This document shows positions 5,625 through 36,471 of a DNA stretch of 64,000 nt, in pieces. The number at the start of each line of letters is the position of its first letter. Within the stretch, counting starts at the first letter, position 1. The notes under the pieces are model-generated. The model did not search any database. It saw only the letters and a program-made list of their open reading frames with translations, and was not told the DNA's origin. The translations under genes were made by a program, and so were the position numbers. The DNA is from Escherichia phage vB_EcoM_ASO2A: the sequence record MZ726793.1; one strand, written 5' to 3'.

Positions 5625-6184
5625 ACACCCTCGCTACGTAACTGTTGAAAAGATTTAGCCATTGCATCTTTTGTTGATAGAATAGGTTTAAAACCTTCGT
5701 CAAAAATCATATCGAAGCCCCAATCGATCCCTATATCAGGATCATCCCAACGTAAACTTTGTTCACTAGAAGGGTCGTATGGAGTTGTGCATTTGTATTC
5801 AAAGATAGCATCCATACTCAAAACTATAAAACCATGAGCCAAACCAGGCGGAAGCCAAAACTGCGTATGGTGTCGTGCACGAAGAACAACACCGTCCCAA
5901 GCACCGTAAGTTGGACTATCTTTACGTAAATCTACAGCGAAATCCAATACTTCCCCACTTACACAACGAACTAGCTTACCTTGCGGGTTATTTGTTTGAA
6001 AGTGCATTCCTCGCAAAACACCGAAGTTTGATTTAGACATGTTATCTTGAACGAAAGTTTGTCTACCAATAATATCTTCGTATTTTTGTTCATTATATGT
6101 TTCTAGAAAGAAACCACGATCATCTTTATAAACGTCTGGTTTGATAATTACCGCACCTTCAATTTTTGTTTTTTCTACTTTCAT
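5618..6184 (-). CDS. rmlC: dTDP-4-dehydrorhamnose 3,5-epimerase
   Basis: Cupin-type RmlC sequence ([19 protein letters not shown]); start trimmed to Met41 of the listed ORF so that rmlA stop and rmlC start overlap as ATGA. Confidence 0.8.
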
Positions 6185-7059
6185 TTTCTCTCCGCTAATT
6201 TGAGTAGGTATTGCCCGTACTCTGTTTTCTTCAGTGAGTTTCCATGATACACCAAAGTCTCTAAAGAAATCCACCCTTTTTTGAAAGCAATTTCTTCCAG
6301 GCACGCAATCTTCAATCCTTGACAGTTCTCAATAGTCTGCACGAATTGACCAGCTTCCATCAGACTGGCGTGTGTTCCTGTGTCAAGCCAAGTAAATCCT
6401 CGTCCGAGAACTTCCACTTGTAACTTCCTGTCTTCTAGGTAGCTGCGATTGATATCAGTGATCTCCAGTTCTCCACGCGCGGAAGGGGTTACTTCTAATG
6501 CACGTTGAATAACAGAGTTATCATAGAAATACAAACCTGTGACAGCATAATCTGATTTAGGATTTTCAGGTTTCTCTTCAATAGAAATAGCTTGACGATT
6601 ACTCCCAAATTCAACCACACCGAATCGTTCAGGATCTTTCACCAAATACCCGAAAATACAAGCTCCGCCCCAAACATCTACCATCTCACTGGCGTTAATC
6701 AGTAGTTTACCAAAGCTTTGTCCGAAGAATAGGTTGTCACCTAAAATAAGAGCAACAGAGTCTTCTCCGATAAAATCTTTACCTATGATGAAAGCTTCCG
6801 CAAGACCTCGTGGCTCGGATTGGATTGCGTAAGTGAGTTTTATCCCAAACATAGACCCATCTCCGAGAAGATACTCAAAGTCTTCCTGATCACCTGGTGT
6901 GGTGATGATTAAAATATCCTTAATGTCAGCCAACATCAATACCGATAAAGGGTAGTAGATCATGGGTTTGTCATACACAGGGAGCAATTGCTTGCTCACA
7001 CTGCGTGTTACCGGATGAAGGCGGGTTCCGCTTCCTCCCGCCAAAATAATACCTTTCAT
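6181..7059 (-). CDS. rmlA: glucose-1-phosphate thymidylyltransferase
   Basis: [39 protein letters not shown] closely matches bacterial RmlA. Confidence 0.9.
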
Positions 7060-7067
7060 AACCCTCC

Positions 7068-8060
7068 TTAAATTTTCTCACTCCACCATTGAGGGTTGTT
7101 TAAGTACCATTCAATCGTTGAGTAGAGATCTTGTTCAAATGTAGAGTTTGCACTCCAGCCCAGTTCAGACTCTATCTTAGAAGGATTGATTTCATAACGC
7201 AAGTCATGTCCTTTACGATCTTCAACAAAAGTTATCAAGTTGGAAGAAGGGTAGGTTACTGCTTCTGGATGTACAGTATCCATATAGTCACAAACCATAT
7301 AGATGATCTCCATATTGGTTTTGGGATTACGTGTTCCAACATTATACGTTTGACCTGGTTCTCCACCTGTTGCCACTTGAAGAATAGCTCGCGCATGATC
7401 CTCAACAAAAAGCCAGTCTCGCACCTGGTCGCCTTTACCATACACCGGAATCTCTTTATTCGTCAAGATACTTGTGATGATTTTTGGGATCAGCTTTTCT
7501 GGATGTTGATAAGGCCCAAAGTTATTGGAGCAGTTGGTTATCACAACAGGCAAATCGTAGGTGCGGTGCCAAGCTTTCACAAGATGGTCAGATGCCGCCT
7601 TAGACGCACTGTATGGGCTTGAAGGGGCATAAGCTGTCTCTTCGGTAAAAGGAACGCCAGAGTCTGCCATATCGCCGTACACTTCGTCTGTGGAGACGTG
7701 TACGAACATCTTCAGTTTATTTTTTGGGAGGAGCCTTGCAGCTTCCAATAAATTGTATGTACCAATAATATTGGAGTCAATGAAAACTCGTGGATTCTTG
7801 ATAGAATTATCCACATGACTCTCTGCCGCTAAGTGAATGATGAAATCGGGATTGCACTCTACTACTAAACTTTTGACCTGGGTTTCGTTTGCCAAATCTG
7901 TCATGCTTAGTTTAATGTGAGTGATATCGCCTACATTCTCAATATCTGCTGCATAGCCCATCTTATCAACGACAAAAACTTCGTTATTAGGATCTTGACA
8001 AAGAGAGCGCACCACGGCACTCCCAATAAAACCAAGACCACCTGTTACCAGATAGCGCAT
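7068..8060 (-). CDS. rmlB: dTDP-glucose 4,6-dehydratase
   Basis: N-terminal Rossmann motif [13 protein letters not shown] and catalytic YSASK motif; 330 aa. Confidence 0.9.
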
Positions 8061-27392: not shown

Positions 27393-27699
27393 CTTTAACC
27401 ACCTCCAATTGCCTTTCTAGTTTGACTCTGTTTGAGAACTGATAATGACACAACTTACATTGCATGTCAACAATCTGATCGTGATTTAACCCTACAATTT
27501 TAACTTCCTTTGCACCATCCCACTCCAAATACTCAAAGCCATCCAAATGATTACTCTTGTACAACAGGAATGCTATCTGCTTCCATTCAATCTGAATATC
27601 ATTTAAATGATATGCTGCACAGAAGATATCCTCATAGTAAAAGACGATCATTGTCATTGCTTCGTCAAGTACAACTACCTCTTGTCTTGTAAATCTCAT
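27376..27699 (-). CDS. hypothetical protein (107 aa), first gene of leftward block
   Basis: ORF adjacent to divergent intergenic region. Confidence 0.4.
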   Translation of the reverse strand: MRFTRQEVVVLDEAMTMIVFYYEDIFCAAYHLNDIQIEWKQIAFLLYKSNHLDGFEYLEWDGAKEVKIVGLNHDQIVDMQCKLCHYQFSNRVKLERQLEVVKDDSTN

Positions 27700-27940
27700 T
27701 CTAGCCTCCTAAACGCGTCTCTGACGCACTTTTATATATAAGATGATAAATCACCTTACCTAGTAAGTAAACTTGCTCTACAGCCTCTTATGAAGCTTAT
27801 GTTATAGGCTATACTATTGCTACCTGTTTAAGCAAGGTTTTTGCACACAGAAAATAATTTTTAATAAAACTCTTGACTTTTGTGTTCGAAGTATGCTACC
27901 CTAGAAATCTATTAACGAGCGCAGCGAGTTAAGGTTTTAG

Positions 27941-28160
27941 GTTGGTGATGTAGTACTCTGTACTCAAGTACTGTACTCCGTACTAGATTAATAATTATTA
28001 AATATTAATAATAAATAATTATTAGATCTAACAAACAGGTACAGTGTATCAGAACTGGTACGTACAGATCAACTTCTATCAATTAAAAATAAAATAATAA
28101 ATTATTATAAATAATACTTGATCTATAGATTAGTATGAAGTACAGTACGAAACATCTTAA
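27941..28160. repeat. AT-rich region with clustered GTAC(T) repeats and AT palindromes
   Basis: GTACT five times in 27951-27985, further GTAC copies around 28040-28150, palindromic AT-only core about 27988-28030. Confidence 0.6.
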
Positions 28161-28178
28161 CAAGAATGGAGGTGTGCA

Positions 28179-28364
28179 ATGATTAGTGAGAATCCGTGCA
28201 AATGGCATCATGTGCCTATTAAAGATTGTATGTCTTGTAATCCACGTTCTATTTATAACATTGCATCTTATGATGATGACAATGTGTTAGACGATGATGA
28301 AGGCTGGGAGGATTTAGATTGGACTGGTTATGAAACCAAAAAGGATAAAATTATTCCTAGTTGA
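28179..28364 (+). CDS. small Cys-rich protein (61 aa)
   Basis: CKWHH ... CMSC; RBS GGAGG upstream. Confidence 0.35.
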   Translation: MISENPCKWHHVPIKDCMSCNPRSIYNIASYDDDNVLDDDEGWEDLDWTGYETKKDKIIPS

Positions 28365-28401
28365 CTTAAGATATCCTTCGTGCTAAACTAGAAGTGAGGA
28401 G

Positions 28402-28653
28402 ATGCCGATCACTCCCCATTTGGGGTTCGAAGGATATATGCAAAATAGCTTTTATTTTAGGTGCCGTGCTTGTAATAGGCATTTGACAAACCACTCCAGA
28501 CGTGATAAAAATGGAGTCATCAAGGAATCAGACCTCTGTTCTATTTGCACAGGTTTGGCTTTTGATGATAGTCCCGAAAGGGTTTATCAGCATCAATGTA
28601 TAACAGACGTTCTCGTGTCAAACTTGGTAGAGGACGAACAACTAACAGATTAG
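28402..28653 (+). CDS. Zn-ribbon protein (83 aa)
   Basis: CRAC ... CSIC. Confidence 0.4.
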   Translation: MPITPHLGFEGYMQNSFYFRCRACNRHLTNHSRRDKNGVIKESDLCSICTGLAFDDSPERVYQHQCITDVLVSNLVEDEQLTD

Positions 28654-28661
28654 GAGGAACA

Positions 28662-28910
28662 ATGTCTCTATTAGAAAAACACGTGTTTGAAGATGGTAAC
28701 GGCAATGCAGTTTTTCTTTTCCATCCAGAAAAATACACATCTGAAAACAATGGTACAACTTCTATTGTAATCACTAAAGATGTTAAAGTTATTGATTTCT
28801 TGGCTCTGATGCGAGAGATGGATCTTGAAATTAATACTTTTAACGCAGAAGCTTTGGTTGTTGCTCTTCTGGAAAAGAAAGATAGTGAAGAAGTAGCAGA
28901 ATATGCTTAA
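28662..28910 (+). CDS. hypothetical protein (start at MSLLEK)
   Basis: AGGAGG RBS precedes this internal ATG of the listed ORF. Confidence 0.35.
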   Translation: MSLLEKHVFEDGNGNAVFLFHPEKYTSENNGTTSIVITKDVKVIDFLALMREMDLEINTFNAEALVVALLEKKDSEEVAEYA

Positions 28911-28912
28911 AT

Positions 28913-28950
28913 AACTATTGACAAACGTATCCTTCATATGTTAGGATACG
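28913..28950 (+). promoter_or_regulatory. sigma70-like promoter, conserved AACTATTGACAA element (copy 1)
   Basis: AACTATTGACAA then about 17 nt then TGTTAGGAT; upstream of tRNA cluster. Confidence 0.5.
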
Positions 28951-29156
28951 TTCATCAAGTGTGGTAACAGGGTCGTTGACTTTTGTTAAGAGGGGCTTGC
29001 ACTGCGGTAGTGTTAGAGACTACTTCTTCAGAGGTTAGCTACCAAAGAGGAAAAGGAATAGTCTCGGCTCAAGAACTTTTACGCTGAAAGTTGGGCTTGG
29101 TCTTAGAGAATGTAGCGGTTCTCTACAATCGTCAGCGTCTCTGTTACCACATTTAT

Positions 29157-29231
29157 GGCCCTGTAGCTCAATGGGAGAGCTGTCGGCTCATAACCGATAG
29201 GTAGCTGGATCGAAACCAGCCAGGGCCACCA
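29157..29231 (+). tRNA. tRNA anticodon CAU (Met or Ile2 if lysidine-modified)
   Basis: Manual cloverleaf: acceptor GGCCCTG/CAGGGCC, anticodon loop CTCATAA, T-arm GCTGG-ATCGAAA-CCAGC, encoded CCA. Confidence 0.8.
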
Positions 29232-29233
29232 AC

Positions 29234-29308
29234 GTCTTTATGGTGTAATGGATAGCACAGGAGTCTTCTAAACTCTTAGTCAAGGTTCGATTCCTTGTAA
29301 AGACACCA
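29234..29308 (+). tRNA. tRNA-Arg (UCU)
   Basis: Acceptor GTCTTTA/TAAAGAC, anticodon loop CTTCTAA, T-arm CAAGG-TTCGATT-CCTTG, CCA. Confidence 0.8.
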
Positions 29309-29501
29309 GAACATTTTAACATGAATTAGCTCAAGTGATTTGAACCCACTACTGATCATGGTGGCAGAGAATGAGGCAAGTATGTCAGACATTATAAACA
29401 AAGGCCACGGTTATATTAGAAGACATAAATGCTCGAAGAGCACCGTTCGTGGAGAACGGGGTTGGTGGAGTCACCATTCATGGTAAAATGTTTTAAAAAA
29501 C

Positions 29502-29541
29502 TATTGACAACTAACATTATTTTATGTTAGATTATAAGTAT
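29502..29541 (+). promoter_or_regulatory. sigma70-like promoter, conserved AACTATTGACAA element (copy 2)
   Basis: AACTATTGACAA-N17-TAGATT immediately before tRNA-Ser. Confidence 0.5.
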
Positions 29542-29632
29542 GGAAGGGCAAATCGACGTGGCGACGAAAACGGTCTTGAAAACCGCCGAGCTTGAAAGAG
29601 CCTTGGGAGTTCGACTCTCCCTCCTTCCGCCA
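29542..29632 (+). tRNA. tRNA-Ser (UGA), class II
   Basis: Acceptor GGAAGGG/TCCTTCC, anticodon arm CGGT-CTTGAAA-ACCG, long variable arm, T-arm GGGAG-TTCGACT-CTCCC, G73, CCA. Confidence 0.75.
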
Positions 29633-29637
29633 GATTA

Positions 29638-29723
29638 GGTAGATTGGTGAAATGGTAGCCACGACAGTTTGCTAAACTGTAGTCGGAAACGGCGTGTAGG
29701 TTCGAGTCCTACATCTACCGCCA
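29638..29723 (+). tRNA. tRNA-Ser (GCU), class II
   Basis: Acceptor GGTAGAT/ATCTACC, anticodon arm ACAGT-TTGCTAA-ACTGT, long variable arm, G73, CCA. Confidence 0.8.
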
Positions 29724-29853
29724 AGTTCTTTTTAATATAGCTTACTTTAGCAGAGTAAATCTTCGGCAAGTGGCGGTAACCACTTTACCGATAACTCATA
29801 GTTAGTGGTGTGAACACTGGCTATTTTAAAAAGAATTTAAATATTAGTATTTA

Positions 29854-29941
29854 GGTGAGTTAATTCCGTAGGGGTAGCGGGGCAGACTGTAAATCTGTTA
29901 TCATTGCGATTCGGGTGGTTCGACTCCATCACTCACCACCA
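29854..29941 (+). tRNA. tRNA-Tyr (GUA), class II
   Basis: Acceptor GGTGAGT/ACTCACC, anticodon arm CAGACTGTAAATCTG as in bacterial tRNA-Tyr, long variable arm, A73, CCA. Confidence 0.8.
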
Positions 29942-29946
29942 AATTA

Positions 29947-30032
29947 AGATGAGTTGGCTGAATGGTTTAAGCGGCGGACTGTTAATCCGTGTTCGAAAGA
30001 ACGATATAGGTTCAAATCCTATACTCATCGCC
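29947..30032 (+). tRNA. tRNA-Asn (GUU), atypical with long variable arm
   Basis: Acceptor GATGAGT/ACTCATC, anticodon arm GCGGA-CTGTTAA-TCCGT, extra hairpin GTTC-GAAA-GAAC in variable region, G73, CCA. Confidence 0.6.
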
Positions 30033-30039
30033 AGAATTA

Positions 30040-30116
30040 TGGACTTGTAGAGTTAAGGTAAACCCCCAGTCGCCAAGAGGCTTCTGGAATTGCAGGTATC
30101 GAATCCTGCCGAGTCC
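30040..30116 (+). ncRNA. tRNA-like element without canonical anticodon arm
   Basis: Acceptor GGACTTG/CGAGTCC and T-arm GCAGG-TATCGAAT-CCTGC (8-nt loop); central region folds as a CCAG...CTGG hairpin. Confidence 0.35.
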
Positions 30117-30123
30117 CAGCTTT

Positions 30124-30198
30124 GCTCCTATAGTATAATGGCTATTACAACGGTTTTGTAATCCGTGGATCTCTGTTCGATTCAGAGTGGGAGCACCA
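30124..30198 (+). tRNA. tRNA-Thr (UGU)
   Basis: Acceptor GCTCCTA/TGGGAGC, anticodon loop TTTGTAA, T-arm CTCTG-TTCGATT-CAGAG, CCA. Confidence 0.7.
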
Positions 30199-30471
30199 AC
30201 ACAACATTAAGGGCACTGTGATTGATCGTCGTATCCTGTGCACAAGGTCTGTTCGAAAGACAGTGTTCTTAGTATTGTGTTGATCACACAAAAAGAGTTA
30301 CCTGAAACTTGACCGGAGTAGGGTTGGATGGGGCAAAAGAAGAAGCGGCTCTCCCATCGACAGCAACGAAGAATAATATTTGACTTTGGTTTTGTATTAT
30401 TTTAAGTTAGCTTACCGAACGTAGGGCTAGTCACCCAACGGGATACTCGTCACTGTCCCACTCAATAAAAC

Positions 30472-30512
30472 TATTGACAACCAATAGTAAAATGTAGTAT
30501 AGTAAAGATGTA
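30472..30512 (+). promoter_or_regulatory. sigma70-like promoter, conserved AACTATTGACAA element (copy 3)
   Basis: AACTATTGACAA-N15-17-TAGTAT/TATAGT immediately before tRNA-Gly. Confidence 0.5.
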
Positions 30513-30514
30513 GG

Positions 30515-30588
30515 GCGTTCTTGGTGTAGCGGTAGCATTCCGTCCTTCCAAGTCGGCGGCACGAGTTCGATCCTCGTAGAACGCTCCA
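30515..30588 (+). tRNA. tRNA-Gly (UCC)
   Basis: Acceptor GCGTTCT/AGAACGC, anticodon loop CTTCCAA, T-arm ACGAG-TTCGATC-CTCGT, CCA. Confidence 0.75.
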
Positions 30589-30686
30589 AATTATTTAATA
30601 AAGGGTTGCCAGAAAACTTTCTCTTTTACTCATGGTTTTCTCCTTCTCTCACACCTCTTCTGGTTGCCCTTCATTAAATGATTTAT

Positions 30687-30762
30687 TGGTTTGTAGTGTA
30701 GTCCGGTAGCACACGACACTTTGACTGTCGTAGGTTTGGTTCAAATCCAGACAGACCAGCCA
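30687..30762 (+). tRNA. tRNA-Gln (UUG)
   Basis: Acceptor TGGTTTG/CAGACCA, anticodon arm CGACA-CTTTGAC-TGTCG, T-arm TTTGG-TTCAAAT-CCAGA, CCA. Confidence 0.75.
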
Positions 30763-30855
30763 TATAACAAAGGTGAGTCACTACCTCAAGTGTGAAGTTA
30801 AAAACGAGGAGCCGCCGAACACTTTCTTTTGCGGTGTACCTTTAGAATGTTATGA

Positions 30856-30932
30856 CGGAATTTAGCTCAGTTTGGTAGAGTGTACGCTTTGGGAGCGTAT
30901 TGTCGCAGGTTCGAATCCTGCAATTCCGACCA
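30856..30932 (+). tRNA. tRNA-Pro (UGG)
   Basis: Acceptor CGGAATT/AATTCCG (C1-G72), anticodon arm TACGC-TTTGGGA-GCGTA, T-arm GCAGG-TTCGAAT-CCTGC, CCA. Confidence 0.85.
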
Positions 30933-30938
30933 ATTAAA

Positions 30939-31012
30939 TGTTTCGTAGTTCAATGGTAGAACCCACGACTGATAATCGTGAGATACAAGTTCGATTCTTG
31001 TCGAAACAACCA
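30939..31012 (+). tRNA. tRNA-Ile (GAU)
   Basis: Acceptor TGTTTCG/CGAAACA, anticodon arm CACGA-CTGATAA-TCGTG, T-arm ACAAG-TTCGATT-CTTGT, CCA. Confidence 0.8.
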
Positions 31013-31014
31013 GT

Positions 31015-31084
31015 TTCCCGTTAGACTTACAGGATAAGAGTTCCACAATTTATTGTGACGCTGGTTCGAATCCAGCACGGGATA
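31015..31084 (+). ncRNA. atypical tRNA-like element with shortened anticodon arm
   Basis: Acceptor TTCCCGT/ACGGGAT (1:72 mismatch), D-arm, T-arm GCTGG-TTCGAAT-CCAGC; anticodon region CACAA-TTTA-TTGTG has a 4-6 nt loop; no encoded CCA. Confidence 0.35.
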
Positions 31085-31090
31085 CATAAT

Positions 31091-31169
31091 AGCGGGATAG
31101 AGGAGTCTGGTCGTCCTCGCCAGTTTCATATGCTGGAGATCATTGGTTCAAATCCAATTCCCGCCTCCA
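31091..31169 (+). tRNA. tRNA anticodon CAU (Met), 1:72 unpaired
   Basis: Acceptor AGCGGGA/TCCCGCC with A1xC72 mismatch, D-stem GAGG/CCTC, anticodon loop TTCATAT, T-arm ATTGG-TTCAAAT-CCAAT, CCA. Confidence 0.7.
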
Positions 31170-34848: not shown

Positions 34849-36414
34849 GTGTCAACAGGAAAAAGAACGTACACTAAAAAGTCAGAATACTGGGACAAAG
34901 GTGCTGCAAATAAAGCTGCTCTCTCTCCAACAAAAGAGGCAGAGAAAGAGAAAACGTTACTCCTGTCACCTGAAATAGGAACGATCGGATTAAACTCAAT
35001 CAAAGCATTTACGAATTTCATGCAACCTTATGAGACTCGTTTCCCAGAATGTATTCGCACTTTTAAAGAGATGGGTGAAGACCCTGATGTAGCTACTGCT
35101 CTTGACGCTACATATATCTTTGTAGATAGAGCATTCTTTGATTTCAAGATAAAATACAATGTAAACTCGGCAAAGTCAAGAAAAGCTGCTAAGTTTATTG
35201 ATTACATGTTACGCAATATGCAAGCCCCTCTACGTCAATATGTTAGATCACTTTTGACATATAAGCAATATGGTTTTGCATTTGCAGAGAAAGTTTATGA
35301 GTTGGATGAAGATCCTAAAAGTCCTTACTTTGGGTATTGGCGATTAACCAAACTGGCTTTTAGACCACAAGACACTCTTCACATGGCTCAACCTTTTACA
35401 TATTCGGCAGACGGACGTTCTATTCTATCTGTTAACCAGAATATCACCAATACGATGTTAGCTCCAGGCAATACAACTTTAGAAACTGGTATTAAAGAAA
35501 TTCCTTTCAGTAAAGTTTTATTTGTTGGTAGCAACATTACAGAGAATAACCCACTAGGAGTTAGTCCGCTTTTAGCTGTATATCGTAGCTGGCGTGAAAA
35601 ATCTCTTATTCAGGAATTTGAGGTTATTGGGGTATCTAAAGATTTAGGTGGTATGCCAGTTCTTAAGGTTCCAAGTGACATTCTAAACAGGGCATCTTTA
35701 GATCCTGCTGGGGATGAAGCACAATCTCTTCGAGTTCTCCAAGCCAACATCGCTAACCTGCACTCTGGTGAGCAAGCCTACATGGTATTGCCTTCAGACG
35801 TTTATGAAGGCACAGTGATGCGTCAATACGATCTTGTATTCCAAGGTGTTGATGGCACGGGTAAACAGTTTGACACTCAAGCACTAATCAAACAACGCAA
35901 GCTAGATATTTATAACCGCTTTGGTGCGGGTGTGTTGATTATGGGTGATGGTGATGCAGGAAGTTTTGCGCTTTCTGACAACAAACAAACACTATTGTCT
36001 CATTTTATTGAGCGAGATGTAGATATTGTTGTAGAAGCTATAAACTCTCAACTGATCCCTCAAACACTACGACTAAACAATATCTTCCTTTCTGATGAAG
36101 ATATGCCTAAGTTTGTCAGTGGTGAAATGGGTGATCCTGATATTGAAGTAAATGCTAAAGCTATTCAGCAGTTGGTAGCCTCTGGTGCAATACCTTTAAC
36201 CCCAGAAGTTATTAACGAGTTCCTTGAAAAAATTGGTTTTGAATATCGCATCCCTGACGATATTGTTGCCAATAAAGAGAAATTCTTTGAATTCATGGAT
36301 AACTATATGCCTGACAAAACTTCACGATCAGGAGATGGTTTAGCTACAGCGGGAACTGGAACATCTGATACTGTTTCTGCTTTAGATCCTTCAGCACAAA
36401 ACCTGTCGAATTAA
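34849..36414 (+). CDS. portal protein (GTG start)
   Basis: 521-aa protein immediately after the terminase gene; GGAGG RBS; assignment by position and size. Confidence 0.6.
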   Translation: MSTGKRTYTKKSEYWDKGAANKAALSPTKEAEKEKTLLLSPEIGTIGLNSIKAFTNFMQPYETRFPECIRTFKEMGEDPDVATALDATYIFVDRAFFDFKIKYNVNSAKSRKAAKFIDYMLRNMQAPLRQYVRSLLTYKQYGFAFAEKVYELDEDPKSPYFGYWRLTKLAFRPQDTLHMAQPFTYSADGRSILSVNQNITNTMLAPGNTTLETGIKEIPFSKVLFVGSNITENNPLGVSPLLAVYRSWREKSLIQEFEVIGVSKDLGGMPVLKVPSDILNRASLDPAGDEAQSLRVLQANIANLHSGEQAYMVLPSDVYEGTVMRQYDLVFQGVDGTGKQFDTQALIKQRKLDIYNRFGAGVLIMGDGDAGSFALSDNKQTLLSHFIERDVDIVVEAINSQLIPQTLRLNNIFLSDEDMPKFVSGEMGDPDIEVNAKAIQQLVASGAIPLTPEVINEFLEKIGFEYRIPDDIVANKEKFFEFMDNYMPDKTSRSGDGLATAGTGTSDTVSALDPSAQNLSN

Positions 36415-36442
36415 AAATATTTAATATTTTTTAATTTTTCTA

Positions 36443-36471
36443 TTGACAAAACAACAAATATCCTGTAGACT
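36443..36471 (+). promoter_or_regulatory. sigma70-like promoter
   Basis: CTATTGACAA-N17-TAGACT. Confidence 0.4.

Follow-up and report, generated by a model that had tools for sequence, protein, structure and literature searches.

A clade-specific, GTAC-rich palindromic module between two candidate early promoters of phAPEC8-like phages

Why does a phage genome that avoids the word GTAC carry a dense cluster of it at a single non-coding site? The question arises in a 64,000-nt stretch of DNA from Escherichia phage vB_EcoM_ASO2A (MZ726793.1; hereafter, the window), in which a 479-bp gap (27700–28178) separates a leftward open reading frame (ORF; ATG at 27699) from a rightward ORF (ATG at 28179), bearing out the initial annotation, which had placed the switch between leftward and rightward gene blocks here. 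The window shares 99.9% identity with Escherichia phage MRostami-2023b and 95–99.5% identity with ~60 phAPEC8-like phages (genus Phapecoctavirus, subfamily Stephanstirmvirinae). Our analysis establishes how the GTAC- and AT-rich feature in this gap is organized, that it is unique, how duplication built it, and how it compares among relatives. We favor, tentatively and with somewhat less than even confidence, the reading that the feature is a palindromic module, specific to its clade, that regulates early rightward transcription in cis and lies in the 5′ leader between two candidate promoters.

The gap contains five copies of GTACT in 32 bp (27953–27984; starts at 27953, 27960, 27968, 27973, and 27980), confirming the earlier count of five within 35 bp, and the further GTAC copies that had been reported, GGTACAG among them, are all present (28039, 28058, 28062, 28140, and 28145). 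Ten of the 60 GTAC copies in the window lie within 196 bp (27953–28148), a span in which 0.15 copies would be expected at the background rate (Poisson P ~2e-15; ~6e-13 after scan correction), the ten copies not being independent events, several having come from local duplication. The next densest 200-bp stretch of the window holds four copies. GTAC density in the gap is far above what composition predicts, and the genome-wide avoidance that the initial annotation had proposed to look for is strong. Specifically, the window contains 60 GTAC copies, whereas dinucleotide shuffles contain 170 ± 11 and a second-order Markov model predicts 189.5; the observed/expected ratio of 0.32 is the lowest among all 256 tetranucleotides. 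In a relative with 99.9% identity, the complete genome (149,246 bp) contains 141 copies versus 432 expected (observed/expected 0.33), with a single GTACT array and a next densest 200-bp stretch of five copies.

The cluster does not lie between divergent promoters; it sits in a leader, between a distal (27873–27902) and a proximal (28118–28146) candidate rightward promoter, both on the plus strand. The distal promoter, identified by its match to consensus, would comprise a TTGACT −35 element (27873–27878), an 18-nt spacer, and an extended −10 element, TGcTACCCT (27894–27902). At ~+8 to +20 of the predicted distal transcript is a leader box, CGAGCGCAGCGAG (27916–27928, plus strand), inside a small hairpin, TTAAC...GTTAA. 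Next is the GTACT array (27952–27984; AGTACTCTGTACTCA / AGTACT-GTACTCC / GTACT), comprising ~2.5 copies of a 13–15-bp unit, with core start-to-start spacings of 7, 8, 5, and 7 bp. Overlapping the array is the left arm of a long-range inverted repeat (GTACTGTACTCCGTACTA, 27968–27985), the first 10 nt of which are perfect; the right arm (TAGTATGAAGTACAGTAC, 28131–28148), identified by repeat analysis, lies within a 55-bp 'repeat_region' (28094–28148) that is the one item annotated in the gap in public records, in some Danish isolates (tuntematon). Between the arms are four elements: AT-only run 1 (38 nt, 27987–28024), an imperfect palindrome with 18-nt arms that are 89% complementary; the motif AGATCTAACAAAC (28024–28036, plus strand), which has related 13-mers in other lineages; the center of the inverted repeat, GGTACAGTgtatcagaACTGGTACGTACAG (28038–28067), a dyad with three GTAC copies that includes the palindrome GTACGTAC and carries GGTACAG and GGTACGTACAG; and AT-only run 2 (36 nt, 28081–28116, plus strand), which is UP-element-like and immediately 5′ of the proximal −35 element. 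The AT-only palindromic core described earlier (27988–28023) is present inside run 1. The proximal promoter candidate comprises TTGATC, a 17-nt spacer, and TACAGT (28141–28146), and matches consensus at 8 of 12 positions, under the threshold of our scan. Its putative −10 element lies inside GTACAGTAC, and the GTAC copies at 28140 and 28145 overlap it.

AT-only runs 1 and 2 are the two longest such runs in the 149-kb relative genome. The third longest (31 nt, at 36409) is directly 5′ of a near-consensus promoter, TTGACA-17 nt-TAGACT with a preceding TG (36409–36471, promoter at 36443), and we therefore interpret the AT blocks of this phage as probable promoter-upstream (UP-type) elements. Both AT tracts in the gap match AT-rich blocks found directly 5′ of putative sigma-70-type promoters in the genome. 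The hexamers, 17–18-nt spacing, and AT-rich upstream region expected of a sigma-70 promoter with an UP element are all found, and the distal and proximal candidates are conserved in position.

The region is strongly self-complementary. Folded as single-stranded DNA it has a z-score of −4.0, and folded as RNA a z-score of −2.8, levels that 0 of 200 shuffles reached; in both folds the left arm pairs with the right arm (P = 0.002 versus dinucleotide shuffles). The segment formed by the left arm and AT run 1 repeats, in inverted orientation, the segment formed by AT run 2 and the proximal promoter (56 nt, 71% complementary). In addition, the two AT runs match each other at 71% in direct orientation, and the array resolves in repeat analysis into a tandem 13–15-bp unit. 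These inverted, direct, and tandem copy signatures trace the GTAC richness to one seed, the proximal −10 flank. In particular, the GTAC motifs appear to be copies of GTACAGTAC, inverted (27968–27985 versus 28131–28148) and then tandem-amplified as the 13–15-bp unit.

For deeper comparison, we used phiWec188/179 (same genus, ~21% divergent), phi92 and FKP3 (Justusliebigvirus), and Citrobacter phage Tr1. All four outgroup lineages keep the distal promoter, the leader box, a AGATCTAACAGAC-type motif, one AT block, and the proximal promoter. The GTACT array and AT run 1 are found only in the phAPEC8 clade, and are absent in phiWec188, phi92, FKP3, and Tr1. The distal-promoter TTGAC and ATGCTACCCTA do not vary among the five lineages, which represent at least three genera, and their sole exact copy in the window is here. 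The leader box, CGAGCG(C/A)AGCGAG, is invariant across the five lineages except at its C/A position and is unique in the window; its consensus hairpin is predicted to be weak, with a few compensatory pairs. Judged by sequence, the distal promoter and leader box appear to constitute the truly conserved non-coding element of the region. The counterparts of AGATCTAACAAAC are AGATCTAACAGAC in Tr1, TGATCTAACAGAC in phi92, and AGATCTTAAAGAC in phiWec188; an AT block is present at the position of AT run 2 in five of five lineages; and the proximal promoter has homologues by position: TTGACT..TAGAGT in phi92 and phiWec188, TTGACC..TACACT in FKP3, and TTGACC..TATAGT in Tr1. The window's GTACGTACA reads CTCTATACT in deeper relatives, and the phi92 homologue of its GTACAGTAC is GTAGAGTAG. 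Three alignable places carry GTAC in the window and a different word in every outgroup. The initial annotation would have discounted the region if it were unconserved in relatives: the array is near-invariant in ~60 close relatives and absent from the sister clade and other genera, where the promoter framework is kept.

A search of IMG/VR and metagenomes with the leader box yielded no intermediate forms, all loci being either phAPEC8-type (10 GTAC) or phiWec-type (0). A 25-nt fixed GTACT pattern had 0 matches in IMG/VR, a 15-base pattern had 48 unrelated matches, approximately the chance expectation for 15 specified bases, and E. coli genomes contained no similarity to the region. An ancestral RTACT array, suggested by ATACT repeats in phi92, is rejected, RTACT not being enriched versus dinucleotide shuffles in the other lineages. 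Two separate observations emerged from these searches. Exact 19–23-nt leader-box matches (e.g., TTAACGAGCGCAGCGAGTTAAGG) occur in unrelated GC-rich bacterial metagenome contigs, two of four sharing flanks, and may reflect chance or a small shared motif. Unrelated, non-homologous viral contigs in IMG/VR contain GTAC tandem arrays, namely AGTACAAA repeats (590–700, apparently inside an ORF) and (AGTACTA)n (2490–2615).

Strong GTAC depletion is specific to the phAPEC8 clade: 50-kb stretches of phiWec188 and of a Justusliebigvirus have observed/expected ratios of 0.73 and 0.72, respectively. Of the phiWec188 GTAC sites that align to the window, 13 of 144 are still GTAC, versus retention of 24–61% for control 4-mers. 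The replacements include GTAT (21), GAAC (18), ATAC (15), GCAC (14), and GTTC (8); since they affect all four positions and include transversions, they fit selection against the word rather than decay of a methylated cytosine. The depletion is word-specific relative to both composition and relatives, as restriction-site avoidance would predict. The remaining GTAC-rich spots are rmlA/rmlB and one tail-fiber gene, which we take to be prone to horizontal exchange. That the cluster survives in a genome that purged ~90% of its ancestral GTAC suggests constraint on its sequence.

Close relatives vary at the locus. The array is identical in ~58 of 63 records. Differences include one AGTACT changed to AGCACT in phAPEC8; GGTACAG changed to GGTATAG in anhysbys; one 13-bp array unit missing in dw-ec; deletion of 28043–28108, comprising the center and most of AT run 2, in nieznany, which is viable; deletion of ~28131–28168, comprising the right arm and proximal −10 element, in EP57; small tandem duplications in several isolates (anhysbys, UP17, and Ro121lw); an indel in the L078 record; and, in UP17, extension of the palindrome arms of AT run 1 to AGATCTAATAATTATT. 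Array and AT run 1 are never both missing in the records compared.

This variability, with frequent indels among isolates (dw-ec, nieznany, EP57, anhysbys, UP17, Ro121lw, and L078), is what would be expected if the feature were a non-functional by-product, in which template switching and slippage in a hypervariable AT-rich spacer amplified a GTAC-containing promoter flank, the result being young or weakly selected. The inverted, direct, and tandem duplication signatures, the lack of the module in sister clades, and the dispensability of its individual parts point the same way. We nevertheless regard such an origin as unlikely, given three observations. First, the lineage removed ~91% of its alignable GTAC, including coding sites, while ten non-coding copies persist in ~60 isolates from several continents. 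Second, the three alignable places at which the window alone has GTAC hold against all outgroups. Third, complementarity between leader and promoter recurs in other lineages.

Specifically, complementarity between leader and proximal promoter is present, formed by unrelated sequences, in phiWec188 (GATCTAAAAG/CTTTTAGATC, P = 0.024) and in Tr1 (18-nt arms, P = 0.04). The Fisher combined P for five lineages is 6e-4, versus 0.74 for control segments; for the four lineages other than the window, P values recombined by hand give ~0.02. The pattern is suggestive of a recurring property that would be a leader segment complementary to the proximal promoter core, rather than the GTAC word itself.

In the cis-regulatory reading, the module would act in cis on early rightward transcription by one of two routes. 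In the first, a long-range RNA duplex would form in the distal-promoter transcript, enclosing an AT tract, and serve as a processing or stability site. In the second, a dyad-symmetric or cruciform DNA site would overlap and modulate the proximal promoter; in a variant of this route, a GTAC-reading protein possibly bridges both arms. Promoter activity, pairing of the arms in vivo, and an effect on expression are here predictions from sequence. The dyad sites that a repressor operator array would place over a promoter are found: GTACAGTAC at the −10 element, its inverted copy 170 bp upstream, and GATCTATAGATT in the spacer. The initial annotation had listed a regulator-binding array among its suggestions; a regulator-binding or structural array is the most plausible class remaining, without a cognate DNA-binding protein having emerged among the ten neighboring small proteins scanned. 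In that scan, against Pfam and PHROGs, we obtained zero Pfam matches, PHROGs all of unknown function, and no detected DNA-binding domain.

Several points weigh against cis-regulation of early transcription by this module. Both promoters are proposed from consensus matches; no regulator was found among the neighboring small proteins (Pfam, PHROG), which are common to the GTAC-less sister clade; and leader–promoter complementarity is non-significant in phi92 (P = 0.25) and FKP3 (P = 0.44). Template-switch mutation at quasi-palindromes could yield complementary arms without function. Close relatives, at 95–99% identity, are too alike for conservation to prove constraint. Each sub-part is absent from some viable isolate, and any function would therefore be modulatory, not essential.

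Could the cluster instead serve a GTAC-specific enzyme, as had also been suggested? Such an enzyme does seem to be present in the ecology of the phage. In BI-EHEC (OL505078) and KKP 3954 (OR067838), compared with window positions 1–50000, 22 of 40 and 19 of 39 GTAC sites, respectively, read ATAC or GTAT instead, against a background divergence of 1.5–2%, and no other 4-mer is comparably altered. The BI-EHEC assembly is Nanopore-only (PMC8686590). DW-EC, sequenced with an identical pipeline from a different host (PMC8752677), keeps the cluster GTACs in the ~1-kb locus examined. The altered reads are probably base-calling errors at a host-dependent GTAC modification and indirectly indicate that GTAC-specific modification, and probably also restriction, exists in natural hosts. 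Exceptional restriction sensitivity has been reported for relatives of these phages (PMC8594841).

An enzyme-linked role would have the cluster read through its GTAC modification state, for example at methylation-sensitive early promoters on DNA that a host GTAC methyltransferase has or has not modified, or would have it divert a GTAC restriction-modification system as a decoy or sink. The co-occurrence of the cluster with clade-specific selection against GTAC (0.33 versus 0.73 and 0.72), the altered GTAC in BI-EHEC and KKP 3954 with an intact locus in DW-EC, and the two GTAC copies overlapping the proximal −10 element are consistent with this role. However, if the GTAC enzyme were of simple type II, the ten additional sites would be a cost without known benefit, so that the cluster appears a liability rather than a target with an obvious purpose; a search for classical DNA methyltransferase motifs in ORFs of at least 90 aa in the 149-kb genome gave no credible match; and the modification itself is deduced from base-calling patterns. 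We consider the role very unlikely. Also highly improbable in our estimate is the proposal that the ten GTAC copies have been kept by selection, in the face of strong counter-selection throughout the genome, because they are read at this site, either through methylation in the prior host tuning the early promoters or through a GTAC-specific phage or host protein bridging the arms.

Two observations on word avoidance and DNA modification stand beside these. In phiWec188 (LC739537, 30001–80000), CTAG occurs 0 times in 50 kb versus 78 expected, whereas the deficit of GTAC is mild (0.73); the palindromic 4-mer purged differs between the two sister clades of the genus. The window carries rmlA and rmlB (6181–8060), the annotation of KKP 3954 (segment 41665–44945) shows a full dTDP-rhamnose pathway, and published speculation ties rml genes to DNA glycosylation (bioRxiv 10.1101/2020.01.19.911818).

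A replication origin was the remaining suggestion, prompted by short repeats beside an AT-rich tract, with GC skew proposed as a check. The OQ031492 genome comprises four transcription blocks, with divergent points at ~54–55 kb (the gap region) and ~134 kb and convergent points at ~17 and ~98 kb. GC skew reverses at every one of these four switch points, and its global minimum is at the other divergent point, ~133.8 kb; skew is thus uninformative about an origin, a conclusion that the authors of the rV5 genome also reached (PMC3606486). An iteron-type origin is rejected: an adjacent AT-rich unwinding region is available (38- and 36-nt AT-only runs), but the repeats are 5-bp cores at 5–8-bp spacing, in ~2.5 copies of a 13–15-bp unit, and are not iteron-like. 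No linked initiator gene was identified among the ten neighboring small proteins (Pfam, PHROG), and the rightward neighbors are common to the array-less sister clade.

The layout of a T4 oriF or T7-type origin, with a promoter upstream of an AT-rich element, is present in five lineages (27873–27902 versus 27987–28024 and 28081–28116). An origin of this type would have the distal-promoter transcript priming the leading strand, the AT tracts unwinding, and the GTAC palindrome as a clade-specific auxiliary. For this possibility speak a promoter and leader that are unique and kept throughout the subfamily, 85–200 bp downstream of which lie the two longest AT-only runs of the genome; an AT block at position in all five lineages; the coincidence of the divergent switch point with a turn in cumulative GC skew; the retention in every isolate of the array or AT run 1; and a literature that reports no origin for this phage group. 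We judge it unlikely nonetheless. The skew turn is one of four and not the global minimum, promoter-upstream elements explain the AT blocks more simply (compare 36409–36471), the GTAC repeats are missing from sister lineages with homologous genomes, and the search for an initiator gene among the neighboring proteins was negative. Furthermore, the genome has other repeat arrays at ~140–145 kb. A promoter-plus-AT-tract origin does not, in any case, need the GTAC repeats. The arrays just mentioned lie outside the window, at ~140.3 and ~145.4 kb, and comprise 29 bp × 2.9 (AAATGATAATGATTCTCATTTAAGAAGAT, Fur-box-like by eye) and 55 bp × 2; they are alternative candidates for origin or regulatory repeats.

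Other identities were rejected. The feature is not a miniature inverted-repeat mobile element: it is present in a single copy in 149 kb, has no flanking duplication, and has as its right arm an ancestral promoter with a phi92 homologue; moreover, neither E. coli genomes nor phages beyond the clade yielded matches. A known RNA family is rejected, a search of 27600–29200 against Rfam at E ≤ 1 having matched one tRNA only. A genome terminus or packaging site, which the nearby start of the nieznany record and its split match might have implied, is rejected as well; the record starts inside the next gene, and the split match is a 66-bp deletion. Resemblances to TrpR (GNACT half-sites) and LexA (CTGT-N8-ACAG) sites fail on spacing and half-sites.

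Around the module, a candidate leftward sigma-70 promoter identified by consensus scan, TTTACT-17 nt-TATCAT (27743–27771, minus strand), could serve the leftward early operon; its block, GGTGATTTATCAT, is kept in phiWec188, phi92, and Tr1. On the other side, inspection locates the ribosome-binding site GGAGG and the ATG of the first rightward gene at 28168–28181 (plus strand). The gene, starting at 28179, encodes a 61-aa product with a PHROG of unknown function and no Pfam match. The block starting at 28179 continues with three small ORFs and then a cluster of ten tRNA genes (29157–31169). An 83-aa ORF (28402–28653), annotated in phAPEC8 and unannotated in tuntematon, has a zinc-ribbon-like CxxC...CxxC spacing and is 87% identical to its phiWec188 counterpart; it may encode a small early nucleic-acid-binding protein. 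The homologous intergenic region of phiWec188 holds an extra 70-aa leftward ORF (2573–2785 of the compared stretch) that the window lacks.

The module is unusual in being built from the most avoided word of its genome. The persistence of ten copies of a purged 4-mer at a single spot makes for a clean natural experiment in weighing selection for a sequence against restriction avoidance. Phapecoctaviruses, which are isolated widely and are candidates for use in phage therapy and biocontrol, are essentially unstudied in their regulation and replication; in the literature on phAPEC8-like phages, we found no report on origin, promoters, or GTAC, and no transcriptome. The region is an obvious starting place for mapping early transcription control or replication initiation. 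The GTAC miscalls in two relatives point to a system in E. coli hosts that modifies GTAC and could restrict host range. If GTAC is read at the module, restriction-modification history would be coupled to early gene expression in a virulent phage; if the module is neutral, it would be a clear example of palindrome growth through local duplication.

Comparison with known systems places the module among several precedents. Its avoided word behaves as in restriction-site avoidance in unmodified phages such as T7, T3, and T5 (BASEL study, PMC8594841): a palindromic 4-mer is depleted ~three-fold, replacements occur at four of four positions, and recently acquired genes (rmlA/rmlB and the tail-fiber gene) are richer in GTAC. 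The theory does not, however, predict an avoided word concentrated ten-fold in one non-coding spot. Like iteron origins (lambda ori, plasmid oriV), the feature has short repeats adjoining an AT-rich tract and is unique in its genome; unlike them, it has 5-bp cores at 5–8-bp spacing, rather than 17–22-bp iterons in helical phase, and its repeats are absent in the sister clade. Like the T7 primary origin and T4 oriF/oriG, it combines a conserved promoter with the most AT-rich DNA of the genome 85–200 bp downstream; those origins have no short GTAC palindromes.

As in looping operators and methylation-sensitive promoters (lambda OL/OR, gal, deo; Mu mom, IS10, P1 cre), dyad sites lie ~170 bp apart, one arm overlaps a putative −10 element, and both arms carry a short palindromic word. 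Unlike in those systems, arm sequences differ among lineages whose neighboring proteins are 67–87% identical, so that base pairing fits better than a switch in protein specificity. The predicted ~20-bp interrupted duplex in the early leader RNA recalls RNase III hairpins (T7 early mRNA, lambda N leader), from which it would differ in its A/U-rich stems. Sigma-70 promoters with AT-rich UP elements, and the tandem early promoters of lytic coliphages, are exemplified by rrnB P1, T5, and T4. The candidates in the gap share with UP-element promoters a TTGAC-type −35 element, a 17–18-nt spacer, a TAnnnT −10 element, and an adjoining upstream AT-only block; they differ in that the AT tracts are 36–38 nt of pure A/T, one of them being duplicated, palindromic, and without a properly spaced promoter adjoining it. 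By analogy, the region would most resemble tandem sigma-70 early promoters with UP elements, to which an operator or processing palindrome has been added.

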